From assembly GCA_017461665.1 (NCBI GenBank), contig JAFTXI010000046.1:3419-67418 (forward strand): a stretch of 64,000 nucleotides of DNA, read 5' to 3'. Position numbers and translations under genes: made by a program. The DNA comes from Bacteroidales bacterium (lineage in GTDB: Bacteria > Bacteroidota > Bacteroidia > Bacteroidales > F082). A model generated the notes under the pieces. That model was given only the letters and a program-made list of their open reading frames with translations, had not been told where the DNA came from and did no database searches. Below, piece by piece: positions 48,874 to 64,000 of the stretch (positions are counted from its first letter, which is position 1; each line of letters starts with the position of its first letter).

Positions 48874-49761
48874 TCATTTCCCCCGATATTCTTTCGGCGA
48901 CAATCCTGTTACTCTCTTGAAATATTTTCCAAATACAGATTGTGATGGGAAGTTAAGTTCGTCGCTTATCTGTTGTATCGTCATCTTGGTAGATAAAAGC
49001 AGCGACTTGGCTTCTGCAATGACATATTCTTCAATGAGATCCAAGGCTGTCTTTCCGTGAAGGTCCTTGACGACTTGCGAGAGATATTTCGGAGTGATAC
49101 ACATCTTGTCGGCATAAAAATAGACTTCTCTTTCTTTCTTGTGATGCTTCTCCAAAAGTTCAATGAAAGTCTGCAAAATATCGTCTTGTCTGTTGGTCGC
49201 TGTCTTCACCTCTTTCACGTCATGTTTCTGATGTGAATATCCATAAAACATTGACAAAGTGAGATGTCGTGCAGCTTCGAGTTTATACTCTTGGCGCGGC
49301 GACGATGCAATGTTTAAGAGTAATTGATAAAACTGACCGAAGACGTTTTCTTCGTTGGCGATCTTCATGACAGGATTTTTTACGATAGATGACTGCAAAG
49401 GCAAGATCTCTCCCGAATTGATGAACAAACTGTCTGAGAATGAACGCGACATCAATATTATCTTACTTCTCAAATCATCGGAATGTCCTAAAGGCTGATA
49501 TATCTGGTCGTTGAGAACTACGAGTACCGATGGCGCTTCGACATGATACTCTTTCATGTTAATTTTCAGGTTGGCACTCCCCTTTTCATAAATTATCGCC
49601 ATTGTCATATCGACCTTAAAAGGTTCGTAGTCGAGACTTAATTCAGCTCGGGAGGCGTGATTGTCGTCGATGAGCAAGATGTCCGTTCCGATGCGATGGT
49701 CGTCGGGCGTGATTTGCTCAATCCTGTTGCGCCATTTCAAATATGAGATTTTCTTGTTCAT
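48874..49761 (-). CDS. AraC family transcriptional regulator
   Basis: C-terminal HTH_18 (ISDELNFPSQSVFGKYFKRVTGLSPKEYR). Confidence 0.88.
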   Translation of the reverse strand: MNKKISYLKWRNRIEQITPDDHRIGTDILLIDDNHASRAELSLDYEPFKVDMTMAIIYEKGSANLKINMKEYHVEAPSVLVVLNDQIYQPLGHSDDLRSKIILMSRSFSDSLFINSGEILPLQSSIVKNPVMKIANEENVFGQFYQLLLNIASSPRQEYKLEAARHLTLSMFYGYSHQKHDVKEVKTATNRQDDILQTFIELLEKHHKKEREVYFYADKMCITPKYLSQVVKDLHGKTALDLIEEYVIAEAKSLLLSTKMTIQQISDELNFPSQSVFGKYFKRVTGLSPKEYRGK

Positions 49762-50606
49762 TTCGTTTTCTCCCTATATTCTGTTGGCGACATTCCAGTG
49801 ACGCGTTTAAAAAACTTACCAAAAACCGAACATGATGGGAAATGCATCATCCTGCTTATTTGTTGGACACTCATATCCGTAGAAGAAAGTAAAGCTTCGC
49901 ATTCTATCATGGTCTGCCTGTCGATATAATCGTTTGCTGTCATTCCTGTCTTCTCTTTCACAATCTCTGTCAAGTATTTAGAGCTTACGCCGAGACGTCC
50001 GGAGTAAAAAGGAATGGTTCTGTTGATGACGAAATAGTTTCTCACGTCATCGCAGAATCTGTCGAAAATGACTTCTTTTTTCTTTTTATCATGGACTACA
50101 TTTTCCAGTCGGCGTGCGTAATAATACAACATCGAAAGTGTTAGATGTTTCGCCGATTCGAAGCGTCCTGCTTTAAACGGCGACTTCACGGCATGAAGTA
50201 ACATCTTATAATAAGTGTTGAAAGAAATCATGTCGGAACTGATGTCGATGACAGGATTCTCTTCTATCATCTTACGAAGAAATGGCGAGCCCATATCGAC
50301 GGTAAACTTCTTCGACATGATGATTACCCTTACTGAAAGGTCGGCGGAAGCCTCTAAGAAACAATACGTTTGATTTGAAAGCACTGCCGCTATGCATGGC
50401 GACTGCACTCTGTATTCTTTTCCATCGACGATGGCGCGACTGTTTCCCTTATCCATTAATATAAAGGTGTTGACATCAACTTTTCGAGGCACATTTTCTG
50501 AATCTTTAAGATCAATATTCTCTAAAATTATCAAGTCATCGCCTATCCTCATATTCTCCGGCACGCTTTCCTTTATCTTCGACTGCCAATCAAAATAATT
50601 TTCCAT
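49758..50606 (-). CDS. AraC family transcriptional regulator (paralog of the downstream gene)
   Basis: C-terminal HTH_18 (ISRMMHFPSCSVFGKFFKRVTGMSPTEYR). ATGA stop/start overlap with the next gene. Confidence 0.88.
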   Translation of the reverse strand: MENYFDWQSKIKESVPENMRIGDDLIILENIDLKDSENVPRKVDVNTFILMDKGNSRAIVDGKEYRVQSPCIAAVLSNQTYCFLEASADLSVRVIIMSKKFTVDMGSPFLRKMIEENPVIDISSDMISFNTYYKMLLHAVKSPFKAGRFESAKHLTLSMLYYYARRLENVVHDKKKKEVIFDRFCDDVRNYFVINRTIPFYSGRLGVSSKYLTEIVKEKTGMTANDYIDRQTMIECEALLSSTDMSVQQISRMMHFPSCSVFGKFFKRVTGMSPTEYREKTK

Positions 50607-50761: not shown

Positions 50762-51772
50762 ATGGCAAACACAATTTATCTCGTGACCGGAGCAGCCGGT
50801 TTTTTAGGCAGCAATGTCTGCGCCCAATTATTGGAACGTGGTGAAAAAGTAAGAGCATTTGTCCTTGAAGGAGATACAGCGGCAAAGTATATCCCGAAAG
50901 ATGTTGAGATTGTTTATGGCGACCTCTGCGACAAGCAGTCTTTGGAGAAGTTTTTCGATGTTGAAGAAGGAACTGAAACGATTTGTATTCACGTTGCGAG
51001 TATGGTGACGGTGAATCCGAACTATCGTAAAGTCGTTTTAGATGTCAATGTTGGTGGAACAGAAAACATCGTAGATCTTTGTCTCGAGCATAAAGAGTGT
51101 AAGAAATTAGTATATGTAAGTTCGACGGGAGCTATTCCAGAGCGTCCTCATAAAGAGAAGATTAAAGAATCGAGCGATTTCAATTTGGATCATGTGGTGG
51201 GTTGGTACAGCAAGAGTAAAGCCATGGCAACCAACAACGTATTCACAGCAATTCAGAAGAGAGGACTTCAAGCCTGCGTCGTTTATCCTACTGGAATATT
51301 TGGTCCGAACGACAACGCGATGAGCGAGACAACGTCAACGATAGTTAAAATCATTAAAGGAGAAATGCCAATAGGAATCAACGGTTCTTTCAACTTAGTC
51401 GATGTGAGAGACTTGGCAGCAGGTTGTATTGCAGCAGCCGACAAAGGAAAAGTCGGGGAAGGTTATATCCTTGGCAACGAGGTTATTACTCTTAAAAGAT
51501 TAAGCAATCTGCTTCAGAAGGAACTTGGATGTCAGCCGATAAAATTCTTCTTACCTATCAAGATGGCTGAGAAGATCGCCAAGAAGATGGAGAAGAAAGC
51601 CGCCAAGACAGGAAAGATGCCGATGATGACGACATTCTCAGTCTATAACTTAAAGAGAAACAACAAATTCGATTATAGCAAGGCAGAACGCGAGTTAGGA
51701 TACAAGACACGTCCTATCGAAGAGACGCTCCGTGACGAAGCCCAATGGCTTAAAGAAAACGGAAAGATTTGA
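50762..51772 (+). CDS. NAD-dependent epimerase/dehydratase family SDR (dihydroflavonol-reductase-like)
   Basis: Rossmann motif VTGAAGFLGSNV and catalytic YxxxK (YSKSK). Confidence 0.88.
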   Translation: MANTIYLVTGAAGFLGSNVCAQLLERGEKVRAFVLEGDTAAKYIPKDVEIVYGDLCDKQSLEKFFDVEEGTETICIHVASMVTVNPNYRKVVLDVNVGGTENIVDLCLEHKECKKLVYVSSTGAIPERPHKEKIKESSDFNLDHVVGWYSKSKAMATNNVFTAIQKRGLQACVVYPTGIFGPNDNAMSETTSTIVKIIKGEMPIGINGSFNLVDVRDLAAGCIAAADKGKVGEGYILGNEVITLKRLSNLLQKELGCQPIKFFLPIKMAEKIAKKMEKKAAKTGKMPMMTTFSVYNLKRNNKFDYSKAERELGYKTRPIEETLRDEAQWLKENGKI

Positions 51773-51962: not shown

Positions 51963-53593
51963 ATTGATTTTCCAATAACCTCCTTTGTTGGGACCAACAT
52001 GTTCTATTACGGGATTTAGTTTTTCAATATCACGACGAATTGTTTTTTCATTTACCTTTAATTTTTCTGACATTTCATCGATTGTTATTTGAGGATCAGC
52101 AGTTATTAGTTCCACTATCTTAAGATGTCTCTTATATTCTTTGTTCTTCAATTTTTTTATTGGTATATAATCTAAACAAACATCTAACTCATCTGATTCT
52201 AAACCTTTCATATCATTTTCTGAGGACATTTTCTGATTTGTCAGGACATTTTCATCACTTTCTGTGGACATTTTCGGGTTTGTCAGGACATTTTCATCAC
52301 TTTCTGTGGACATTTTCGGATTTGTCAGGACATTTTCGAATTTGTTAGGACATTTTCATCATTTTCTGAGGACATTTTTATATATGTTATCGAAAAAATA
52401 AAGTGAGAACCATTAAGAATTTCCACTTTATAATCTGGTTGATATAATGGAGCATAGCGTAATATATTTCTCGACCCCGACCCCATATCTTCAACCCATG
52501 ATAATTCATGAAAAACCTTAACCAATAATGGATTCTTTGTATAATTATTAAGTTGTTCTAATTTCAAATTTCCTTCTGGAATTTCAGGAAGTAATCTACT
52601 TGGATTTTTAGTCAAAACCCTATCTTTAAACACATGAAAAAAACAGGCATAACCACTACTAAAATCGCTATGGACACACATATTGGCTATTATCTCACGA
52701 AATAGATTCCATCTTAAATCTATTCGTCTTGTTGTCCCGATTGGAAGATAAAACTTATCTGGCAAATATCTTTCTGTAAATTGGGATAATTCATTATATA
52801 CATTGATAAGATTGCAGCGTAATGTACGACGATCATCATAACGATTTGACAATGACGACATATCAGTGTATTGTTTATATGTACACATGTGAAATACGGC
52901 TTCAAACCTATATCGTGGCAAAAATTCTTGTATTGAAGATTCTTTTCCAAATAGAATAAGTGCTGCATATTTTATTTTAAGTTCCTTAGTAATCTGGTCT
53001 CTTTTTGCAAGATGTAAATGTATTAATATCTCTTCATCAGATAGTTGCAGCCATGAATGGTTTGGTTTATTAACAGAAAGAATTTTACGACAAAATTGAA
53101 TGGTTTTATGATCTATATCATCAATATTTAAACCATCAACAAATCTTTCTTCAAACAAATGCGGATTCTTCCGTTCAAACAACGATAACAATAATTCCGG
53201 ATGGTCTGTTATGTCTAAATCTATTTCTCCGTTTCTGTCGAAGTATCTTCCGTTATATCTATAAACATATTGTCCACATGGTATGTGTAAAACCATTGCG
53301 ACCTTATCTTCTATTTCAACAATTTCGGGAGTAAGGTAAAGACTCGGTAAAAATAGATCCTTATTTTTCACAGTGCTAATAATATTATTTTTAAGTTCTT
53401 GTATTTTATCAGGATTTACACCTATGATTTTACCATTGTCATTTACCCCAATTAAAATGATTCCTCCGCTATGATTCAGAAAAGAGCAAACACTTTCATA
53501 CAGAGAATATGAAATCTGATCATAACATGTTTTGTACTCAATTTGAGAGTTCTCTCCCTCTTTTGATAATTTTATAAATTGTTTAGTTTCCAT
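51954..53593 (-). pseudogene. AlbA_2/Schlafen-type DNA-binding + HATPase_c_4 + C-terminal wHTH protein (often misannotated as RecG-like), split into 422-aa and 119-aa ORFs
   Basis: The N-terminal ORF has an AlbA_2-like start (SQIEYKTCYDQ...NHSGGIILIGVNDNGKIIGV). The C-terminal ORF has the wHTH (IVELITADPQITIDEMSEKLKVNEKTIRRDIEKL...GPNKGGYWKI). The break lies in a tandem repeat at 52330/52331. Confidence 0.7.
52209..52372. repeat. coding tandem repeat made of alternating 22-nt (A) and 20-nt (B) modules, giving a 42-nt / 14-aa unit (MSTESDENVLTNPK)
   Basis: Module order on the plus strand is A-B-A-B-A-B-B-A. The B-B junction at 52330/52331 shifts the reading frame. Confidence 0.9.
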
Positions 53594-53784
53594 TGGTTTA
53601 TGATTCTATAAAACTTCACTTACTCATCTCCACGCTGCAAAACTAAACCTATTGTTATTGATCTCCAAATATTTTTAGTTAATATTCATTAACATTCTCA
53701 ATATTTTACGATTTGAGTGTTTTTGTTAACATTTTTCCTTAAAAGTTTTTAACAAATGATTTAGTTAGAACAGGAATCTCTCAC

Positions 53785-53850
53785 TCGAACCTGACACGAC
53801 TGTGATACGACTGTGATACGACTGTGACAGGAAGGAGACTCCTACGAATT
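53785..53850. repeat. direct-repeat copy 2 (66 bp, with 3.5 rather than 2.5 copies of the 11-bp unit)
   Basis: See copy 1 at 51908-51962. Confidence 0.9.
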
Positions 53851-53976
53851 GACACTGATGGGCACGGATTGGTTTCTGCGTGATTTTAATTAGAAGTATC
53901 TCTCGCAAAGGCGCAAAGGAACGCAAAGTTTTAAATTCCAGATTAACAGTGTATTCAGCACAATCGGCATTAGTTG

Positions 53977-53997
53977 TCAATTGTCAACTTTCAATTC
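53977..53997. repeat. 21-bp inverted-repeat arm (right): tcaattgtcaactttcaattc
   Basis: Its reverse complement matches 51808-51828 at 20/21 positions. Confidence 0.8.
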
Positions 53998-54025
53998 ATC
54001 CAATTATGCACTATGAATTACTCTT

Positions 54026-54200
54026 GGGCGTTCCGGCGAAGCCGTCGGGCTTTCCGCTATATCTTTGCTCGCTCCCGTCTCCGCTCTCGGTCGTTGAGCT
54101 TGTCGAAACGCCGGTCACTTCGACAGGCTCAGTGACCTGTTCCCGCTCTCGCACCTATGGAAGCTCACAAAGGATGCCGCTCCAATCCCTAACGCAAAAC
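54026..54200. other. GC-rich structured intergenic element (candidate ncRNA or REP-like repeat)
   Basis: A sharp local GC rise inside AT-rich DNA. There is a 12-bp stem (54096-54107 with 54119-54130) and a competing 7-bp stem (54113-54119 with 54131-54137). Confidence 0.4.
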
Positions 54201-54574
54201 GCTGCTATAAAAGAAGTTACGATTTATAATTGTAGTGATTTTATTCATATAAAAAATTACTTATTGTTTGTTAGGCTATTTTTCAAAGCTATACCCTTTG
54301 CTGTAAGGCGGTATTTTTGTTTCTGGAGCAATCGTAGTCTTCAACTCTGTTTCTTATACGTCATCTCAGCTACTAAGTTGTAAAATTCTTATAAGCAAAT
54401 CTAAGCAGAGTAACGCAATTCAACGCAAAGAACGGCATTTAAAACCAAATCTAAAAAGATGGTTGATATTACGATTATTTTTGCCGTGAAAATTCATTGT
54501 TGAATTGACAATTAACGATTTAGCATTGGATTATTATAGTTCTACATTTATTAACAATTTTAAATTTATCTATT

Positions 54575-55213
54575 ATGGGTAATATCAAACAAGGTATCCT
54601 GGGAGGATTCTCAGGTAAGGTCGGAACCGTGATTGGTTCAAGTTGGAAGGGGATTTCTTATATGAGAGCAATTGCCCCTAATGTTAAAGATGCGCGCACT
54701 GCCAAACAGTTGGGTCAGCGTGAGAAGTTCGCGCTTGTGCTTGGTTTTCTGCGTCCGCTTCAATCTTATATCCGTGTGGGATTTAAGATGTATGCGACGC
54801 GACAGACAGCTTTCAATGCGGCAATGTCGTACACTTTGAAAAACGCCATTAAAGGTGTTTCTCCTGATGTGTCAATCGATTATTCTAAGGTGATGGTTTC
54901 GAGGGGCAGTCTCGCTCTGCCTTTGAACATCCAGAAGCAGAATAACGAGGGTGAGATTGCAATCTCATGGAGCGACAACAGCGGCACCGCCAATGCTCTT
55001 GACACTGATTTCGCCATGCCGTTGGCGTATAATGCTAACAAGCAGGAGTCTGTTTATGACATGGTTTCCGCATGTCGTGGCGATGAGGGCGTCAGCCTGA
55101 ATTATCCTTCTAATTGGACGGGAGACACTGTCCATGTGTATTTGGGATTTGTATCGGAGAATGGTTCTTTGGTATCGGATTCTGTTTACATTGGAGAAGT
55201 GGTAATTGAATGA
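54575..55213 (+). CDS. DUF6266-like protein
   Basis: 212 aa. The N-terminus MGNIKQGILGGFSGKVGTVIGSSWKGISYMR resembles the Bacteroidota DUF6266 family as I recall it. This has not been verified. Confidence 0.5.
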   Translation: MGNIKQGILGGFSGKVGTVIGSSWKGISYMRAIAPNVKDARTAKQLGQREKFALVLGFLRPLQSYIRVGFKMYATRQTAFNAAMSYTLKNAIKGVSPDVSIDYSKVMVSRGSLALPLNIQKQNNEGEIAISWSDNSGTANALDTDFAMPLAYNANKQESVYDMVSACRGDEGVSLNYPSNWTGDTVHVYLGFVSENGSLVSDSVYIGEVVIE

Positions 55214-55253
55214 TTGTCTTACCATAAGCTATTATTCTTTTACTTAAGAAGTA

Positions 55254-55290
55254 GTCCTCAGTACTTGTTATTCAGGTATTGAGGATTGCT
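55254..55290 (+). terminator. hairpin terminator
   Basis: gtcctcagtac (55254-55264) pairs with gtattgaggat (55276-55286), with one G-U pair. Confidence 0.5.
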
Positions 55291-55870
55291 TATTAATTGA
55301 CAATAAACAATTTGCAATTAGCAATTACTATATATCATAAATATCGTTTGCATAAACATTTTTTTCACAAATGGATATTATTTTATAAAGAAATCATCAA
55401 CAATTTATTGTTGAAAGAAAATCAATAATTTAGGTTGTTTTTCTATAGCCTTTTAGTCATTATTTTTATAATTTTGTAACTAAACCAAAAACTTTTACCG
55501 TTGGTTATCTCTATTATTAATTTGACGGCAAATGGTTGACGGTCTTTATATATAAACTTAATATTTTTTAAGAATGAACAGTAATAATTTAGAAGAATTA
55601 CAAGCAGTTACGGGTCTCAGGTTTATTCTCCGTTCCGACATGCTTATTAAAGCTGTTGTTTTCAGAGATCCTTATCGGGATTTTACTGATTTGCTTCTTG
55701 AGCAAGCAAAGTGTTTAAAATGTGCGTACGGCAAGATTTGCTTTATGTATTTAATGCTGAAGTTGTATTTTCACATTGATTTTCAAGGGTATTACAGCAG
55801 GAGGTGTCATTATGGGATGTTTGAAGTTGTATTGGTTTTGTATTTTTTAACATTTAGGAGAAATAGCGCG

Positions 55871-56260
55871 ATGAAGGACAAAAAATTAATAACAGAAACA
55901 GTTGAAAATGTTAAATCTCAGGATTGTGATAACAAAGGATGTCGATATAATGACTGTCCTTTACGTAATGAGTTGATAAGGCGGGGTATATTGCCTGATG
56001 ACAATGCCGGTGACATTCCTGCCAAAGATGTTGCGAACACTCCGTTAGAGGATTGGATAGACAGCCATGACGTCATGAGATTACTTCATATAAGCCAAAG
56101 GACGTTGCAGACATTGCGGTCTAATGGCATGATAAAGTTCTCTAAATTAGGAAAGAATATTTACTACCGACGAAAGGACATCCAAAATATATTGGCTCAG
56201 AATCATACCATGTTCGAGATAGTACACGAATATGGTAAGAAACGAAAAAAAACGGCGTAG
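55871..56260 (+). CDS. helix-turn-helix (excisionase/MerR-like, HTH_17-type) DNA-binding protein
   Basis: The 129-aa version starts MKDKKL. The C-terminal HTH is VMRLLHISQRTLQTLRSNGMIKFSKLGKNIYYRRKDI. The upstream 99 codons of the track ORF look non-coding. Confidence 0.65.
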   Translation: MKDKKLITETVENVKSQDCDNKGCRYNDCPLRNELIRRGILPDDNAGDIPAKDVANTPLEDWIDSHDVMRLLHISQRTLQTLRSNGMIKFSKLGKNIYYRRKDIQNILAQNHTMFEIVHEYGKKRKKTA

Positions 56261-56681: not shown

Positions 56682-58730
56682 TTATTGTTTGATAATCAGT
56701 TTGGAGTTGATGTTGTCGATTGTTATTGTTCCGAATCTTTCAAGTACACTTTGACCGAGTAGAAGTGGTGCTTGTTGTTTGTCGATGACGGTGGCTTCGA
56801 CATTCTTCAAAATGGCATCTCCTATCTTGATTTCTCTTAATCGAATGGTTGTTCCTTCATGTATGTCGCCTGTTGCGGTGCTGTAATGTTGTTTTCCTTT
56901 TATGTCGTCGGAAGTTAAATATCCATTTTTGAGCATGAAGTTTGCCTCGACTGATGAGATTGTGACGATACTTGCTCCCGTGTCGAAGGTGAATTTCAGA
57001 GGGAGTCCATTCACGGAGCATTCTACCTCATAAACTCCACTGTACATTTTCTTCATCGGTATTTCCGAAATATTTGAGATTTCGTCTTGCTTATCATTAT
57101 CACCGTTGATAGTGGCGATTGGTTTGTCTTTATACTCTTTAATAAGGGCAATGAAATCAGGATGGTTTCTGATAGGATCCATATCGTCGTCATTTTCGAT
57201 ATGAGCGAAAGAGCGGTTGCCTTTTTCAAGAGATATACGTAATGCTGCAATGGCTTCGTCGGTCTTGCCCATTCTTGAGAACAGACATGCCTTGTCGTAG
57301 TATTGACCACTGTTTTCCGGATCATTTTCAATTACCTTATTCATCCATTCGATGGCTTCATCATCTCTACCCAAGAAGTGCAATGCGTATTGACGACAAC
57401 TTCCAGATTCTGCAACAGTATCTAACTTCAATATTTCTTCAAAATCGGCGTTTGCCAATTCTTTCATTCCTTGTTTGTTATAGAGTTCACCACGCATCAG
57501 AAATATGTATGGGTATTCTTTATCTACATCAATGCCGGCATTGTAGTTTTCCATTGCGGTTTTGTCGTCACCTTTGAGTTCGTAGCACCAGCCACGCATA
57601 TAATAAGCATACGCATACGTAGGGTAAACCTCTATCATTTGGGAGAAATCAACTATCGCCTCGTCATAACGGCCAGCTTCACGATAATAATTTGCTCTTT
57701 GGGATAATCCATAATAATCTTTTGCATTACCCATCTCAAGGTATTTGGTTATTTCAGCGACAGCATGGTCTGTATCACCTATTTCGCTATAACACATACT
57801 CTTGTAGTAGTAAATATCTGCGGATACTCCATATTCTTTCTCGATATTGTTATACTCTTCTATAGCCTTGACAAAATCGTACATCCATTCATATATGCTT
57901 GTGCGAAGCATTTTCCACATATAATTGTCATCATTATTGTTAATCATCTTGTTTACCTTGGCAAGGGAATAAGTGAGATGTTTTTTAAGGATGTATTCGT
58001 AATATACCGGATTTTCCGAATAATAGATATAAAGGATAGCATCGTCGATAGCTAAGTCCGTCTTGCCCATTTTATCGTATGCCTGCATTCTGAAGCTGTA
58101 TATAGCTTCGTATGTGTTGTCGTACTTTTCGCATTTATTGCACATTTCTATTGCTTTGTCATACTCGCCACGGTTAATCATATTGCGAGCCAATCCTATC
58201 ATAGCGACTTGATCGGTTTCATCATGTTTAAGCATGAGGTCATAGTCGGCATCTGCCTTTTCAACATCGCCCATATAATAAAAAATTTCAGCACGCTCAT
58301 ACAATACAGTATGAATAAGTTCTGTGTTCTTTTCCTTAAGTAGCATTTTGTATGTTATACTATAATCATCTATAGCCTTATCAAGTTCATTCAAATCAAC
58401 ATATACACGAGCCCTGGACCAATATAACGTAGATTTTTGGATATCTTCTTTTTTATTCCAATTCTTTATCGACATGTTAAGATCGGTAAGAGCAAAACCA
58501 TATTTATCCTGTAGATAGTATATATGAGCTCTTAGGAGATATGCCTCCGACAATTTAGGAGTTTCCTCTAATTGCATATTGACGTATTTTATTGAGCCAT
58601 CGAAATCATTCTGGTCAAAAAGTTCATACGCCTTACGCAAGTTATAATCAGATACTTGATTCTTTTGAGCATAGCACATCTGAAGACTCATGAAGATGGC
58701 TATAACGGCTATTAACAATGCTTTTTTCAT
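56682..58730 (-). CDS. secreted multi-TPR protein with a C-terminal retropepsin-like (clan AA) aspartic protease domain
   Basis: Signal peptide MKKALLIAVIAIFMSLQMCYA. About 500 aa of TPR-like A/Y/D repeats. The C-terminal 120 aa or so carry FTFDTGAS (DTG at 56976-56984) and the LLLGQSVLERF flap/dimer region. Confidence 0.8.
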   Translation of the reverse strand: MKKALLIAVIAIFMSLQMCYAQKNQVSDYNLRKAYELFDQNDFDGSIKYVNMQLEETPKLSEAYLLRAHIYYLQDKYGFALTDLNMSIKNWNKKEDIQKSTLYWSRARVYVDLNELDKAIDDYSITYKMLLKEKNTELIHTVLYERAEIFYYMGDVEKADADYDLMLKHDETDQVAMIGLARNMINRGEYDKAIEMCNKCEKYDNTYEAIYSFRMQAYDKMGKTDLAIDDAILYIYYSENPVYYEYILKKHLTYSLAKVNKMINNNDDNYMWKMLRTSIYEWMYDFVKAIEEYNNIEKEYGVSADIYYYKSMCYSEIGDTDHAVAEITKYLEMGNAKDYYGLSQRANYYREAGRYDEAIVDFSQMIEVYPTYAYAYYMRGWCYELKGDDKTAMENYNAGIDVDKEYPYIFLMRGELYNKQGMKELANADFEEILKLDTVAESGSCRQYALHFLGRDDEAIEWMNKVIENDPENSGQYYDKACLFSRMGKTDEAIAALRISLEKGNRSFAHIENDDDMDPIRNHPDFIALIKEYKDKPIATINGDNDKQDEISNISEIPMKKMYSGVYEVECSVNGLPLKFTFDTGASIVTISSVEANFMLKNGYLTSDDIKGKQHYSTATGDIHEGTTIRLREIKIGDAILKNVEATVIDKQQAPLLLGQSVLERFGTITIDNINSKLIIKQ

Positions 58731-58770
58731 AATTTTGTGTTATTTTAATTATTTCTATTTTATCAATTTC

Positions 58771-59547
58771 TCACATCACATCTTTGTCTATCATAAAATC
58801 AAAATCAACAGGTTTGTTTTTTGTATGATTATTCAACATATCAAGGGATGTATTAATTTGTTCGTCTAAATATTTGATAGTCCAATCCTTATTGTAATAT
58901 TTTTTGTAATATGGCATACTTTCAATACGTTGTTTGTAATTCGTTTTAAAATCTTCTGCTGTCTTTGTCAACGGAACAGTTCTATTTTCATCATTCTGTG
59001 CTTCTTTCAATATTGTTTGAAATTCCATATATGATTTTTCATACTCTTTGAGTAAAGTGTGTACAATTGAATGATTGCCTTGTGGTTTACCTGAATATAC
59101 TCTATCTAAATATTTTATTGCTTCATCCACATTCTCTTTGTCAAACTTCTCATACAAGCACCAACGATTCGCCCATCTACCCATCCATGTTTCAACAAAA
59201 GTCTTCTCATTCTCCAACTCTGTTTCCAATCTTTTTATTTCCTTATCTCGAGAAGCAATTTCATTTGTCAAAGAATCATTATTATGAATAAAACCACTTA
59301 TTTTAATGGAATCACTCTCTATATCTTCCACCAACGTAGCGATAAACTTAAAACAATCATTTGCAATACTATCTTTATACAGAATGATTTTATTCAATGA
59401 GTCTAAAATATATCCAATACTATCAGCATTATGTGCTTGCGTCTTTTTTGATATAATCTTGCTCAACACGCCCTTTTCATTCTGAGCATTTGCATCTATG
59501 TTTATAAAACACAATGCCACCAAAATAACATATATACATTTTTTCAT
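58771..59547 (-). CDS. secreted hypothetical protein with a central coiled coil
   Basis: Signal peptide ending DANAQNE. Helical, with an EIKRLETELENEK heptad segment. Part of the operon. Confidence 0.55.
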   Translation of the reverse strand: MKKCIYVILVALCFINIDANAQNEKGVLSKIISKKTQAHNADSIGYILDSLNKIILYKDSIANDCFKFIATLVEDIESDSIKISGFIHNNDSLTNEIASRDKEIKRLETELENEKTFVETWMGRWANRWCLYEKFDKENVDEAIKYLDRVYSGKPQGNHSIVHTLLKEYEKSYMEFQTILKEAQNDENRTVPLTKTAEDFKTNYKQRIESMPYYKKYYNKDWTIKYLDEQINTSLDMLNNHTKNKPVDFDFMIDKDVM

Positions 59548-59555
59548 ACTCTCAT

Positions 59556-60890
59556 TTATTTATATGGTATTAAAACGTAGCCTTTATCACTTCCTTTATT
59601 CTTTCTACCGTTTTTCTTATATACAACATATATTGTATATTTTCTATCTTTCTGTAAGTCTTTCAAGTTTACAAGCGTGTATGAACCAATAGATGTTCCA
59701 CTTCTTGGATTTCCTTTAGTCGTTGAATAATAATATTTTTCTGTTGGTTTTCCATCCACACCAACAAGCAGGTAATCTTTATCCGCTTCTCCATCACTTC
59801 TGACATAAAAACTAAAAGATTCATATCCTTTAATAGTAAAAGACATTGTTGCTGTTGAATTGCGTTGACCATAATTTGTTGATTGGTATGCTCTATACGA
59901 ATAACTTGGTGAAATCATGCTAATCCATTCACTATTATTAGTATTGATATTGATTTCCGGCTTAGGTTGTGGTTTGAATTTCTCCTGCTCCTCTTTCTCC
60001 TGCCTTGCTTTTTCTTCTTTTTCTTGTTTCGCTTTTTGTTTATAATAACTACCCGCCTCATCATAATATTTGCGAGCCTCATTACTTAATTCATCCGATG
60101 GCTGATAATTTACGTACATATTACATACCGCATCATATTCATCAATTAAATCACTTATAACTTTAAACAAATTGTAAAATGCAGACTCTTTCATTTGTTT
60201 ATAGTTTGCCAGTTTGTCAACTTTTGCAGCAACTTGATTATAATGCGATTCACCAATATTATTCTTTACCTTCGACAAATCATTAACAAGTTCTTGGCAA
60301 TTATTCAATGGTGCAATTGTCTTGTAATGTTCCGCATACATAATCTTTGTACCAGCATCTTTGGTTGAATAGAATTTCTTATACTTTGCAGTTTCACATG
60401 CATTGTTGTATAATTGAATTATGTTTTCGATTTCATTTAACGAATCATTAAATGATCCATTCACTGTATCTGTTTCTTCAAAAACAACTTTTAAAGTTCT
60501 AATATTGTTTATTCTATTAAGCATTGCCTTATGGTCTGACTTTCTCCAAACTGATGCTTTAAACTTATCATTACTATATTTTATAAATATCGGAAGATAG
60601 TTTTTAACCAATGCTTTTGTTTGAAAATCTATTTCTTCTTCTGTCACATATAACTCCGCCTTATACATTGCTAACTTATCAACAACAACTCTATATAGCG
60701 AATCATTGAACGCCTCACCCCTTTGTTCACAGAATGCATTTACACCAGATTCCAACGATTGTTGATGAAGATTTACAGTTGGTACAGATGTTGGCGGAGC
60801 AACAATTGTTGGCAAATACAAAAGGATACTTGCAGTAACCGCAATCACCAACGTAACAAGGGCTATTATTTTTATTGGAATATTTTTCAT
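59556..60890 (-). CDS. N-terminally membrane-anchored hypothetical protein with a K/E-rich linker and a beta-rich C-terminal domain
   Basis: TM helix IIALVTLVIAVTASILLYL. A helical region of about 270 aa, then the linker KQKAKQEKEEKARQEKEEQEKFKPQPKPE, then a 125-aa Y/S/T-rich strand domain. ATGA overlap with the upstream gene. Confidence 0.55.
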   Translation of the reverse strand: MKNIPIKIIALVTLVIAVTASILLYLPTIVAPPTSVPTVNLHQQSLESGVNAFCEQRGEAFNDSLYRVVVDKLAMYKAELYVTEEEIDFQTKALVKNYLPIFIKYSNDKFKASVWRKSDHKAMLNRINNIRTLKVVFEETDTVNGSFNDSLNEIENIIQLYNNACETAKYKKFYSTKDAGTKIMYAEHYKTIAPLNNCQELVNDLSKVKNNIGESHYNQVAAKVDKLANYKQMKESAFYNLFKVISDLIDEYDAVCNMYVNYQPSDELSNEARKYYDEAGSYYKQKAKQEKEEKARQEKEEQEKFKPQPKPEININTNNSEWISMISPSYSYRAYQSTNYGQRNSTATMSFTIKGYESFSFYVRSDGEADKDYLLVGVDGKPTEKYYYSTTKGNPRSGTSIGSYTLVNLKDLQKDRKYTIYVVYKKNGRKNKGSDKGYVLIPYK

Positions 60891-62722
60891 ACGTAACTTT
60901 CTGCATTATTTGTTTCTGTTGTTTTTTTCTCATCTTTATTCTCCTTCACTTTGTTTTCTTTCTTTGGCTCGGGAGATGAGGCGTTATCAAGTGCTTCTAT
61001 ATATTTTTTAATGGTGATGTTTAAATCTGAATCTTTAGTAATATATTTCCCCAATCCTGTTTTGTACCTATTATTTTCAACACATTTAAATATTTTTAAG
61101 AATTGATGGGAAGCACTAAGTTCGTCACGATATTTTAATATATCATCAAATCTTCTTTCATTCATAGCATCCCACAGACCTTTTGTTTCTGGATATTTTT
61201 CCATTTCATTACGATTCCACTTTTCATTATTGTCGAGATAATCAATAACAGACACTTCTGGTTTCGTAGCAGATGATGGATTAGATGTTACATCATTGCT
61301 ATTATGATTCGAATTTACATTTGGTTTATTTTTCAAGTCATTTTTCAAATCCGATATTTCCTTTTCTTTATTTTCCAACACCTTCTTCAGAGTCAACAAT
61401 TCCTTTTTCAAAGATGTTATCTCTGTATTATTATTCTTTGTGTCTGATTTAGAAAAATAAGATTTCACGAACCACCCAGCACATCCACCAACACATAATG
61501 ACAATAAAACGAGTATCAACAATATCATTATATGTTTTTTGGTAAAAGGTTTATAGACTAATTGATTATCATAATCAGGATATACCTTTCCATTTGTAGT
61601 TTTATATCCTTCTATCGGACTCTCACACAAGTCTTTTTCTGTTTCAAATTCTATTTTTTTATATTTTGTTATATGAGTGATAATAAACCTATATGTTTTT
61701 TTTATCTTTTCAAGCTTAACTTCACAACTATTTCTTAAATCCTTATTAGCGCGATGTTGTTCATAACCATTGACTGATACTATAACCTCAACATTAGAAA
61801 TAGATTCCTCAACTATTTCAGCGTTTTGATTCGGTAAAATAGTCTCCTTGTTTATCATCAATGTATATTGATCTATTCTATTGCCTTTTTTATCTTTTAC
61901 AACAATTGAATTATATGGCACTAATATTCTATACTCATTCTGAGTTGGTAGATTTAACACCACATCACAGTTTGATATTTGGGTTATTTTTTCAATGGTT
62001 TTATATCCATCTCGTTTCCAAGACACATTCAATATTGTATTAAAATTTTTCTTTATTGATTTTTCGAATGGTTTATCTCCGATGTAAGGTTTAAATCCAT
62101 TACATGTTTTAGGAGGATTTATTATAGCACTACCAACAAAATCTTTTTCTGTTAAATCATCACATGTTTCACATTCAATATTTGAACTTTTATCTATAAG
62201 AAACACAAACTTGTATGAAGAATAACACGGTTGATCGAGATTATCTAGTAGTTCATGAAGTTGATAATATTCTCCATAGAATCTATAAGCAACCTTGTTT
62301 GATGATACTTCCAATGATGACTGTTGTATATCTACAACATCACAGATAGTTTCTGAAAATATCTTTTCTAATTTAGTTTTTGAAGTATCCTTGTTCCAAT
62401 TCAATAATTCTGTTTTCGTAATATCAATGATTTTAGCAAGTTCCTTTCCTGATATAACTATATTCCAAGGAACAAAAATAGATGCACACATATAATCATT
62501 GCGTCCTGCATTGGCGCAATAAATTCTAATTATATGTCCGCAATCTATCTTTTGCAAAAGCAGAAAATCCCAACTCTGATTATCAGGCTTTTTTAATTGT
62601 TTTATTTCCGCAATCTCACCAATATGCTTAGCCCATTTTATATTCGAGTTGTATGACATAAGTGAATTGCTACCCTGATATGTGTATTCAATTTCTACTC
62701 CTAATATGTTATTTCTATCCAT
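60887..62722 (-). CDS. bitopic hypothetical protein (about 395-aa Cys-containing N-domain, one TM helix, a coiled coil, a helical C-domain)
   Basis: TM helix IMILLILVLLSLCVGGCAGWFV. Coiled coil TSLKKELLTLKKVLENKEKEISDLKNDLK. No recognisable family. Confidence 0.55.
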   Translation of the reverse strand: MDRNNILGVEIEYTYQGSNSLMSYNSNIKWAKHIGEIAEIKQLKKPDNQSWDFLLLQKIDCGHIIRIYCANAGRNDYMCASIFVPWNIVISGKELAKIIDITKTELLNWNKDTSKTKLEKIFSETICDVVDIQQSSLEVSSNKVAYRFYGEYYQLHELLDNLDQPCYSSYKFVFLIDKSSNIECETCDDLTEKDFVGSAIINPPKTCNGFKPYIGDKPFEKSIKKNFNTILNVSWKRDGYKTIEKITQISNCDVVLNLPTQNEYRILVPYNSIVVKDKKGNRIDQYTLMINKETILPNQNAEIVEESISNVEVIVSVNGYEQHRANKDLRNSCEVKLEKIKKTYRFIITHITKYKKIEFETEKDLCESPIEGYKTTNGKVYPDYDNQLVYKPFTKKHIMILLILVLLSLCVGGCAGWFVKSYFSKSDTKNNNTEITSLKKELLTLKKVLENKEKEISDLKNDLKNKPNVNSNHNSNDVTSNPSSATKPEVSVIDYLDNNEKWNRNEMEKYPETKGLWDAMNERRFDDILKYRDELSASHQFLKIFKCVENNRYKTGLGKYITKDSDLNITIKKYIEALDNASSPEPKKENKVKENKDEKKTTETNNAESYV

Positions 62723-62726
62723 AAAT

Positions 62727-64000
62727 TTATGATCTGAATTTATTTATTAATTTCGATAATTTTCCTGGTTTATATCCAAAAGATCTTTTCAAAATTGTCT
62801 CTACAACTTTAGAAGCTGGTTCTGCATGAAATCTAAAATAGGATTGAAAACATACATCACCTAATGTAAATGGATGTATATCAACTTTACCGTCATTAAT
62901 TTCCTTATCATAACAAAGTCTTTTAAGGTTACCAAGGAATCCGTCATATTTAGAACTGATATAGTTTTCCAATTTATCTCTCAATTCTTCCCCTGTAGCA
63001 TTTGCCTTGTCTACTTTTGTAACAAGAATATATACCGCATCTGTATCTTTTTCAAAAATACCAGTCTCTATTATATATGCCAAAGCTGAGTTAAGATATG
63101 TTTTCTGTGGCACTCCTCTATATTTTCTATCTTCTGCGCCATATTCAATTACGAAGAAATGAATCTTTCGATTAGATGTTCTGTTGTCAATCAAAATCCT
63201 ATTTAAAGTTTGGAGCACTTCATATACATTTGACTTAAGAGAACCTTTTCCTTTTGATTGCAACTTATGCATATCACAAAACACTTCACCAGCAATATCA
63301 ATACAAGTTATAGGATGTATCAAACCCTTTTTGTCTTGTAATTCAAATCCCATTTCATAAGTAGTTCTCAATGTTGCTTGTGTTCTTTCTGGAAGTGTTC
63401 CGACTTCATTGTCTAATCCAAACAAATCTGACAATTCATTCATATACCCAAAGCCTTGACATTTAGGGTCTTTCATCATACTTGATGCCACTTTGCCATT
63501 ATCTGCAGTACTAAGTATTGCACCTATTGCGCAACTTTTACCAGATGAAGGAATTCCCCAGAAATAAATTTCCGTACTAGGTACTTTTGTGATTTTTTTT
63601 AGTTCTGATGCTGCAGATAATTGTACTGGTGTAACACCAGACATCATGTGTTTAATAAAATCTTTTGCAATTCCCGTCTCTCTAAAATCAGTAATAATCC
63701 CATTGTACCATAACTTATATGCTACATTACCACTTATAAAGTTATTATCATTCTTAATAGTTTCCAATAAATCGTTAACTTTTATTTTTTTTGTATTAAT
63801 GTATTTAGAGATTTCTTTAAAGATAGCATCATCCTTTCGTGGTTCATCGGGATTTGCCATAATTGTATTAATTTGCTTTGCCAACGTAGACATATCAACT
63901 CCTAAATACTCTTCTTTCTGTAACTCACGAAGAATAGCCCATGCTTCTACTAAATGTTGACTTTCCGGATAATTCGCAATATAACCTCGTAATTGTTCCA
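62727..64000 (-). CDS. predicted P-loop GTPase (Ras/dynamin-like motif set), 5'-partial at the window edge
   Basis: G1 GIPSSGKS (63534-63557), G3 DIAGE (63285-63299), G4 TKVD (63009-63020). The frame stays open from the ATG at 63893 up to position 64000, so the true start may lie outside the window. Confidence 0.6.
   Translation of the reverse strand, partial: EQLRGYIANYPESQHLVEAWAILRELQKEEYLGVDMSTLAKQINTIMANPDEPRKDDAIFKEISKYINTKKIKVNDLLETIKNDNNFISGNVAYKLWYNGIITDFRETGIAKDFIKHMMSGVTPVQLSAASELKKITKVPSTEIYFWGIPSSGKSCAIGAILSTADNGKVASSMMKDPKCQGFGYMNELSDLFGLDNEVGTLPERTQATLRTTYEMGFELQDKKGLIHPITCIDIAGEVFCDMHKLQSKGKGSLKSNVYEVLQTLNRILIDNRTSNRKIHFFVIEYGAEDRKYRGVPQKTYLNSALAYIIETGIFEKDTDAVYILVTKVDKANATGEELRDKLENYISSKYDGFLGNLKRLCYDKEINDGKVDIHPFTLGDVCFQSYFRFHAEPASKVVETILKRSFGYKPGKLSKLINKFRS

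Follow-up and report, generated by a model that had tools for sequence, protein, structure and literature searches.

The window analysed here, a 64,000-nucleotide stretch of a Bacteroidales contig (assembly GCA_017461665.1, contig JAFTXI010000046.1), ends in part of a gene cluster (56682-64000), whose most upstream gene within the window encodes a GTPase of an undescribed family. This GTPase is almost certainly a dedicated subunit of an operon that resembles the proteobacterial srf operon and encodes SrfB and SrfC. All cluster features described below lie on the minus strand. The open reading frame (ORF) listing of the window gives an ORF at 62727..63893, which comprises 388 amino acids counted from the listed ATG. 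The frame stays open for 35 codons further, up to the end of the window, where the translation of 62727-63998 reads EQLRGYIANYPESQHLVEAWAILRELQKEEYLGVD. A database protein of 545 amino acids, P0001, which is labelled "hypothetical protein" by NCBI, is 100% identical over all 423 residues encoded in the window. Since P0001 has 122 extra N-terminal residues, the GTPase gene extends past the window: its 3' part at 62727..64000 encodes residues 123-545 and includes the stop codon (62727-62729), and the first 122 residues lie beyond position 64000. The full-length N-terminus was confirmed by the database locus L001, the sequence of which extends past 64000. The methionine encoded at 63893 is residue 158 of the full-length protein, and as close homologues mostly carry isoleucine there in the alignment consensus, this ATG is internal and not the start. 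The original prediction, which was made from the window sequence, had stated that the ORF runs off the window upstream of 63893; translation yields the same residues, P0001 is indeed longer, and the extension past 64000 adds 122 codons. That position 63893 could be the true start, which had been considered as well, does not fit the open frame and the internal position of residue 158. K119 and D295 of the earlier numbering correspond to K276 and D452 of the full-length protein, whose numbering is used here. The gene is therefore real and encodes a 545-residue protein with a very divergent, undescribed GTPase domain.

An AlphaFold2 (AF2) model of the GTPase, which was built from 43 homologues and has a mean predicted local distance difference test score (pLDDT) of 87.3, is all-helical over residues 1-241. 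The GTPase domain comprises residues 264-545 (62730..63575), and its elements follow in the order beta1, P-loop, alpha1, an insertion of about 45 residues, a beta2-beta3 hairpin ending in DxxG and a doubled alpha2, continuing with beta4, alpha3, beta5 with the [TS]KxD motif, alpha4, beta6 and alpha5. The strands 336-343 and 349-356, which are five residues apart, are read as the beta2-beta3 hairpin ending in D356, and the strand 441-449 directly precedes T449-K450-V-D452. According to the model, the topology is that of a Ras-like TRAFAC GTPase with insertions. A Foldseek search of the PDB with this model returned exclusively GTPases among the top 50 matches (E 2.8e-5 to 1e-3, 9-14% identity), including EF-Tu, EngB/YsxC, Nog1, YcjX, G-alpha, Roco, eEFSec, Hbs1 and SRP54, and the 17 best matches in a viral structure library are annotated GTPases as well.

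The motifs expected of a GTPase were located in the sequence by alignment and a coordinate check. The G1 or Walker A motif GIPSSGKS spans G270-S277 (63534..63557), a candidate switch-I threonine, T328, lies in GTLPERTQAT just upstream of beta2 (63381..63383), the G3 or Walker B motif DIAGE covers D356-E360 (63285..63299), and the G4 motif TKVD, which determines guanine specificity, comprises T449-D452 (63009..63020). Conservation was assessed in an alignment of 58 diverse relatives, whose identity to the query is 25-45%. No more than ten columns are invariant (W269, G270, G275, K276, D356, G359, K450, D452, N208 and G502), and eight of these sit in G1 (W269, G270, G275, K276), G3 (D356, G359) and G4 (K450, D452). 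T328 and E360 are each at least 90% conserved, the latter at the position of Gln61 in Ras. The family also has a conserved strand of its own, beta4 with the following loop (SNRKIHFFVIEYG, 63138..63176), in which N398, H402, F404, E407 and Y408 are conserved to at least 90% in the pattern NRKxHFFVxEYG. The distance between G3 and G4 amounts to 94 residues (D356 to K450), which is due to the insertions in the predicted G domain. The family is large: more than 1200 homologue clusters were found at 90% identity, and representatives at 50% identity number 6735 at E<=1e-3, 2025 at E<=1e-10 and 385 at E<=1e-30.

Judged by this conservation, the GTPase motifs are not a chance pattern. As conservation, predicted structure and fold search agree, the protein is very probably a TRAFAC-class GTPase, and the invariant K450 and D452 of G4 argue for guanine as its nucleotide. 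Single-sequence scans of Pfam, NCBIfam, PADLOC and PHROG gave no match above threshold for the GTPase, the sole weak NCBIfam match being TIGR03598 YsxC (E=0.12); a single-sequence search of PDB sequences was without a match, and a profile search matched only the N-terminal hairpins described below. Most of the original prediction is upheld by these results. The four motifs it had listed are all present, its estimate of about 90 residues between G3 and G4 is close to the measured value, and its description of the protein as an unclassified GTPase agrees with the Ras-like topology, the 50 GTPases among 50 fold matches, the invariant lysine and aspartate of xKxD and the absence of a match above threshold in the four libraries and among PDB sequences. 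A membership in a P-loop family other than the GTPases, with a coincidental TKVD, finds no support in the profile and fold searches. The suggested helical, TPR-like (tetratricopeptide repeat-like) N-terminal extension was also recovered.

This N-terminal region of about 240 residues begins with a module of about 55 residues, which is followed by TPR-like hairpins of the BamD/YfiO type and by further helices. Its share in the window (residues 123-241, 63642..64000) contains the last of the hairpins (about 123-155). The family profile matched the BamD-like lipoprotein 9hiv_D in the PDB in two stretches (E=3.3e-4, query positions 70-153), residues 77-170 matched the BamD model TIGR03302 (E=0.0056), and Pfam YfiO was matched by 17 of the 58 relatives (best E=1.7e-7). 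The length of the N-terminus differs among relatives; P0114 comprises 574 amino acids and, as read from its sequence, apparently has one W...NT..aY..YL..yP.G..r.eA repeat more than P0001.

A scan with one genome per species yielded 210 relatives of the GTPase, and the counts on genomic context given here refer to the best 80 of these. This context is the most informative result; SrfB and SrfC lie outside the window and were not visible to the original prediction. On the source contig and on every homologue contig examined, the genes share the order SrfB, SrfC, S8 peptidase, p332, GTPase, p611, p444 and p258, with products of 1015 amino acids (SrfB), 936 (SrfC), about 1000 (S8 peptidase), about 335 (p332), about 600 (p611), about 425 (p444) and about 250 (p258). 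A gene for a TPR protein with a retropepsin-like aspartyl protease domain is the last one of the cluster; in locus L006 it is the first, upstream of SrfB. This gene and p258 are the less constant members. The whole cluster, which comprises eight or nine genes, spans L001:39-17683, and SrfB and SrfC were assigned there by Pfam (PF07520, E=4.4e-219, and PF10139, E=1.6e-96, respectively). Where the upstream flank reaches 7.5 kb or more, SrfC, the S8 peptidase and p332 are present in 63 of 66 loci, with the order from SrfC to the GTPase retained; where the downstream flank reaches 3.5 kb or more, p611 is found in 61 of 71. The genes in the window are separated by 4 nucleotides (GTPase and p611), overlap by 4 nucleotides (p611 and p444) and are then spaced by 8 and 40 nucleotides; this tight spacing indicates one transcription unit with translational coupling. 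The loci are labelled almost entirely as Bacteroidales, namely Bacteroides, Prevotella/Segatella, Alistipes, Muribaculaceae, Paludibacteraceae, Porphyromonadaceae and Marinilabiliaceae, and among the cultured carriers are B. stercorirosoris DSM 26884, B. muris NM69_E16B, Xylanibacter ruminicola KHT3, Prevotella lacticifex JCM 34664 and Phocaeicola paurosaccharolyticus. A literature search found no description of this Bacteroidales cluster.

Some clusters differ in composition. Two divergent whole clusters are found in one bin, on contigs of the metagenome-assembled genome (MAG) CAZFXK01 (L044 and L069), with GTPases that are 39-43% identical to the query. In two other loci, a gene for a 681-amino-acid Peptidase_M48 protein lies between p258 and the TPR/aspartyl protease gene (L004:15478-17523, L005:15478-17523), and clusters of this type hold three peptidase classes, S8, aspartyl and M48. 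In a divergent subgroup, two co-directional genes directly precede SrfB (L074:102-2313, L075:398-2126, L064:88-1384). As read from the sequence, the first encodes a protein with a zinc ribbon, a transmembrane (TM) helix and an apparent SH3-type domain, and the second a membrane-anchored YkuD-type, L,D-transpeptidase-like protein, whose gene lies 1-2 nucleotides from SrfB in L064 and L075. The gene ahead of this pair in L074 presumably encodes a NusG/UpxY-like antiterminator.

An extra gene for a protein of 210-330 amino acids is located between p332 and the GTPase gene in 47 of the 80 loci (e.g., L018:9286-9969), and it is absent from the locus of the window itself. The N-terminal ~52 residues of its product and those of the GTPase are homologous (BLASTP, with E values as low as ~2e-9), and the C-terminus of this product is taken to be a DUF805-like membrane domain (RRTEFG..., GAKRCHDRGNSGW). 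The occurrence of one module of about 52 residues in two proteins suggests a shared docking adaptor, by which different proteins would be brought to the same docking site.

Hydrophobicity analysis found no hydrophobic segments in the GTPase, SrfB and SrfC, one central TM segment in the S8 peptidase, with the peptidase domain C-terminal to it, four predicted TM segments in p332 and predicted signal peptides in p258 and the TPR/aspartyl protease. From these predictions, the operon is composed of three cytoplasmic proteins of the nucleoside triphosphatase (NTPase) type, several membrane proteins and extracytoplasmic peptidases. Downstream of the GTPase gene, the window contains p611 (60887..62722), a bitopic protein with a TM segment at 392-421, p444 (59556..60890), which has an N-terminal TM anchor, is predicted to be periplasmic and ends in a beta-rich C-terminus, p258 (58771..59547), which belongs to the same operon, and the gene for the secreted TPR/aspartyl protease (56682..58730), which is the last cluster gene here. 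Between the helical N-terminal part and the beta-rich C-terminal domain of p444 lies a highly charged, K/E-rich linker of low complexity (KQKAKQEKEEKARQEKEEQEKFKPQPKPE), and the strand opposite to p444 carries spurious ORFs of repeated codons.

SrfB (L001:39-3086) contains the sequences VDIGNSKTT at residue 281, LDIGAGTSDL at residue 589 and VILLSGRPSSLP at residue 776, which we take to be the nucleotide-binding motifs of the actin/HSP70 ATPase fold. SrfC (L001:3111-5921) has an invariant P-loop YGESQVGKS, a Walker B motif DFPGAR and a G4-like TKFNxD, so that the operon encodes two P-loop GTPase-like proteins. A search of PDB sequences gave nothing for SrfB and only spurious antibody matches for SrfC. 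SrfC was also considered as the second member of a 'double GTPase' and was rejected in this role: hhalign of the GTPase family against the alignment of the SrfC N-terminus gave a probability of 0.8% with only the G4 strand aligned, and BLASTP was negative.

The product of the translationally coupled gene downstream of the GTPase, p611, is a candidate partner. Its AF2 model is based on a 27-sequence alignment and has a pLDDT of 76.6 and a predicted template modelling score (pTM) of 0.47. Residues 1-125 form a beta-beta-(alpha)-beta-beta-beta-alpha-alpha domain, followed by several beta-sandwiches, a TM helix that runs into a long, coiled-coil helix (395-462), a disordered linker and a small C-terminal domain (residues 492-580), which is strongly conserved. 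Pfam PEGA was matched by 11 of 52 p611 orthologues (best 9.4e-9), coiled-coil families were matched as well, and p611 was rejected as GAP1 or SrfA at the sequence level (Pfam for the 52 orthologues, NCBIfam for the p611 of the window). A Foldseek search with p611 gave nothing significant, with E values of at least 0.026 throughout. Seven of the matches (E 0.026-0.8) are, as we take them, longin/roadblock GTPase-regulator entries (DENND1A/B-Rab35, Lst4, GATOR1-RAG, TRAPP core, FLCN GAP and C9orf72-SMCR8), and the match to the longin domain of Lst4 has a Foldseek probability of 0.96. A loop with the residues G73-R74-x-D76 is nearly invariant among the 52 orthologues, in which the mean column identity is 26%. 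By analogy, p611 may act as GTPase-activating protein (GAP), guanine nucleotide exchange factor (GEF) or effector platform of the GTPase; that it is a regulator of the GTPase is a tentative suggestion that we regard as doubtful.

The position of the protein among known GTPases has to be weighed against the DO-GTPases (PF19975 DO-GTPase1, PF19993 DO-GTPase2). In this TRAFAC family, the Walker B motif includes a conserved glutamate; its members are typically encoded as two paralogues, often have zinc ribbons or TM segments, and have a GAP1 gene downstream (PMC7159879). If the protein were an ordinary DO-GTPase, it would act in a GAP1-type conflict system, in which a GTPase dimer on a GAP1 protein releases variable effectors. 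DO-GTPases are the best available sequence-profile match for this family, and half of the relatives match one or the other model: DO-GTPase1 is matched by 29 of 58 (best E=1.7e-6) and DO-GTPase2 by 17 (best 6.5e-6), and among the other Pfam GTPase families MMR_HSR1 is matched by only 3 and GTP_EFTU by only 2. Both groups share the TRAFAC G domain and the glutamate right after DxxG (E360 here), by which PMC7159879 defines the DO-GTPases, as well as membrane-protein-rich operons with a presumed partner gene immediately downstream, and GAP1-N1 systems have been reported in Bacteroidetes. However, the match of the query to DO-GTPase1 reaches only 11.6 bits (E=0.16) against a cut-off of 27 bits, 7 of 10 individually examined relatives give 17.7-23.5 bits, which is also below this cut-off, and the matches are partial: of the 271 profile positions, they always cover about 3-96, which correspond to the stretch between P-loop and Walker B, and in the individually examined relatives they stay within 2-102. 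GAP1 gave no match at E<=1 in p611 or its 51 orthologues in the Pfam scan, and GAP1, GASH and FNIII are absent from the matches listed for the other cluster proteins. There is one GTPase copy per cluster and no second paralogous copy, SrfC as the one remaining P-loop protein of the operon cannot be recognised as a paralogue (hhalign probability 0.8%), and in contrast to DO-GTPases, the N-terminus is helical and TPR-like, with no zinc-ribbon cysteine pairs noticed in the GTPase sequence and no TM segment. The operon, moreover, is centred on SrfB, SrfC and peptidases. An ordinary DO-GTPase is thus unlikely. We place the protein in a family of its own. Among described families, the DO-GTPases are the closest to it, and it is set apart from them by the missing GAP1 partner, the missing paralogous copy and the helical N-terminus.

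A second possibility is that TKVD is coincidental and that the protein is either an ATP-using P-loop NTPase or a dead pseudo-GTPase that serves as a scaffold. This would agree with the non-canonical G5 and with the glutamate at the position of the catalytic glutamine, which is also found in many ATPases. However, K450, D452, the P-loop lysine and the Walker B aspartate and glycine are all invariant, and the switch-I threonine is conserved to at least 90%; a dead enzyme would not retain all these residues. Together with the 50 best fold matches in the PDB and the 17 best in the viral library, all of which are GTPases, this makes both variants very unlikely.

The P-loop xxSSGKS and the TKxD of G4 are dynamin-like, and the original prediction had named dynamin, septin and YeeP among the families to be compared. 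The assignment to the GTPases has held, but the top 50 PDB folds and the Pfam matches of the relatives do not support any of these specific placements, and the fold matches do not single out any other classical GTPase family. A large GTPase of the dynamin/BDLP or atlastin/GBP type, which would remodel or tether membranes by GTP-dependent oligomerisation, would also be in line with the long spacing of G3 and G4, with the membrane proteins among the other operon products and with the weak atlastin- and dynamin-like matches in the viral library at rank 9 (7.9e-4) and rank 14 (3.8e-3). However, dynamin, BDLP, atlastin and GBP are all missing from the top 50 PDB folds, and Dynamin_N is listed neither for the query nor among the 25 most-matched Pfam families of the relatives. 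The extra part of the protein consists of short TPR-like hairpins N-terminal to the G domain and not of a stalk or bundle-signalling element after it, and the GTPase has neither a membrane-binding paddle nor a TM segment, which renders such a function highly improbable. A housekeeping GTPase of the ribosome or translation type (EngB/YsxC-, Nog1- or EF-Tu-like) that merely adjoins the Srf genes is scarcely credible, since the best fold matches, EF-Tu, EngB/YsxC and Nog1, and the weak YsxC match mirror only the common G-domain fold, as is evident from identities of 9-14% and query-normalised TM-scores of 0.19-0.26, and the protein has no EF-Tu domain II or III, comes, in the loci recovered, almost exclusively from genomes labelled as Bacteroidales, is tied to the Srf-like operon in 63 of 66 loci and can be present in two copies in one genome.

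The best overall explanation is that the protein is the GTP switch subunit of a trans-envelope system built around SrfB and SrfC, and we consider this probable. The GTPase would be cytoplasmic and, by binding and hydrolysing GTP, would act as a switch on the inside of the cytoplasmic membrane, docked through its helical N-terminus to membrane proteins that the operon encodes. Through its nucleotide state it would control the assembly or activity of the SrfB/SrfC machine and of the periplasmic peptidases, and this state may be set by the longin-like N-terminal domain of p611, which is the likeliest candidate for a regulator. For the part that places the switch at the membrane, the chances appear evenly balanced. 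Several points weigh against the overall explanation. The activity of the family is a computational assignment, and the sole functional report on SrfB and SrfC (PMC6950479) concerns SrfA-containing proteobacterial operons without this GTPase. G5 is not recognisable as SA[KL], and the conserved PF[TS]xG after beta6 is just a guess for it. The similarity to DO-GTPases is sub-threshold for the query, and the longin assignment of p611 rests on E values of 0.026-0.8 obtained with a model of pLDDT 76.6 and pTM 0.47. Furthermore, in 3 of 66 loci (L057, L058 and L076) the genes directly upstream of the GTPase do not include SrfB, SrfC or the S8 peptidase, and among the cluster proteins only the S8 peptidase has a match in PADLOC.

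Regarding the biological role of the proposed SrfB/SrfC-linked switch system, several features resemble those of the NTPase-regulated conflict systems of Kaur et al., although this resemblance is not proof. Evolution is fast in the membrane and periplasmic parts: p611 and p444, which change the fastest, have a median identity of 24-28%, compared with 42% for the GTPase, 55% for SrfC and 63% for SrfB. Further traits are the double cluster in one MAG, the varying peptidases and the match of the S8 peptidase to the PADLOC subtilase model (E=4e-21). The neighbouring genes are variable and often belong to mobile elements (transposase, ParB, Rpn-type PDDEXK, HTH_17, Schlafen/AlbA_2), and the content of guanine and cytosine is 29-33% over the cluster (58-64 kb of the window) compared with 31-42% in the flank. 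We favour a conflict or envelope system that spreads horizontally over a housekeeping role of the cluster; a conflict-type function in particular is plausible, but we rate it somewhat below even.

In the window, a gene for a Schlafen/AlbA_2 and HATPase_c_4 protein lies beside the cluster (52325-53593, minus strand), and genes for a DUF6266 protein (54575-55213, plus strand) and an HTH_17 excisionase-like protein (55574-56260, plus strand) are also found there. These neighbours at 52325-56260 and the contrast in base composition are hints that the cluster is an acquired island. A tRNA scan of the window found none, and thus no tRNA that marks an integration site. Further away, two tandem genes for AraC-family regulators of 295 and 282 amino acids (48874-50606, minus strand) lie next to a gene for an NAD-dependent epimerase (50762-51772, plus strand); both appear to be unrelated to the cluster.

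Bacteroidales dominate the human gut and the rumen, and the family described here is large, is labelled only "hypothetical protein" and is missed by four curated model libraries. Novelty lies in an unannotated family of a known enzyme class, and its weight comes mainly from the invariant linkage with the SrfB and SrfC genes in a nine-gene operon that has not been described. This gives these two proteins a new context that is open to experiments in cultured strains of Bacteroides, Prevotella and Xylanibacter. The DO-GTPase-like clade would be extended into a different type of system. K276, T328, E360 and D452 of the GTPase and R74 of p611 are the residues with which one could dissect the way in which periplasmic proteases might be controlled by a nucleotide switch in the cytoplasm. 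If the cluster serves defence or antagonism, the gut microbiome would contain a widespread system of this kind that no catalogue lists so far.

Compared with its structural neighbours, the G domain of EF-Tu (1eft), EngB/YsxC (7szs, 1svi, 3pqc), Nog1 (7oh3_b, 2qu8) and YcjX (6nz4), the GTPase shares the Ras-like fold, the P-loop, the beta2-beta3 hairpin and the NKxD strand. Foldseek E values for these range from 2.8e-5 to 6e-4, and YcjX gives the longest alignments with 385-391 columns. However, identity to them is 10-14%, there is no match at the sequence level even by profile, and the protein is distinguished by the insertion of about 45 residues between alpha1 and beta2, the doubled alpha2 and the NRKxHFFVxEYG strand as well as by its accessory domains and genomic context.

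The pairs Rab35-DENND1, Rag-FLCN/Lst4, Rag-GATOR1 and MglA-MglB can be compared with the GTPase and p611 by analogy only. In common with them, a GTPase gene is immediately followed by a gene whose product has an N-terminal domain with its best, albeit weak, fold matches among entries with longin-type GEF or GAP components, and the conserved GRxD loop of p611 could supply an arginine finger. In contrast to these partners, p611 is a bitopic membrane protein of 611 amino acids with PEGA-like domains, and no sequence similarity of p611 to longin families was found. It may be speculated that the two proteins form a GTPase/longin-regulator pair that gates a nine-gene trans-envelope machine specific to gut and rumen Bacteroidales, composed of the HSP70/actin-fold SrfB, the P-loop protein SrfC and three kinds of peptidase and with a role in conflict or export, but this combination as a whole is improbable. 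If it were true, the pair would be a prokaryotic counterpart of the eukaryotic longin-type GEF and GAP modules.

The closest comparison for the operon as a whole is the proteobacterial srfABC operon (e.g., of Salmonella), which has been described as being regulated by SsrB. Its SrfA is encoded upstream of SrfB and consists of a kinase-like N-terminal domain, a TM helix and a lipocalin C-terminal domain. SrfABC of Xenorhabdus stockiae has been described as a tripartite cytotoxin (PMC6950479), and SrfA has been modelled as a bitopic membrane platform for SrfB and SrfC (bioRxiv 10.64898/2026.09.18.752743). The published distribution of SrfABC covers only alpha-, beta- and gammaproteobacteria and does not include Bacteroidota. 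Both operons encode full-length SrfB and SrfC in the same order, and in both, soluble NTPase-like proteins are paired with bitopic membrane proteins. SrfA, in contrast, had no NCBIfam or Pfam match in any cluster protein, although the bitopic S8 peptidase or p611 may be distant structural analogues of it, and the genes found upstream of SrfB here encode either the TPR/aspartyl protease (L006) or the zinc-ribbon-TM and YkuD-type proteins (L064, L074 and L075). With components that are not mentioned in the proteobacterial literature examined, the Bacteroidales cluster adds to SrfB and SrfC an S8 peptidase, a four-TM protein, the GTPase, p611, p444, p258 and an aspartyl protease.

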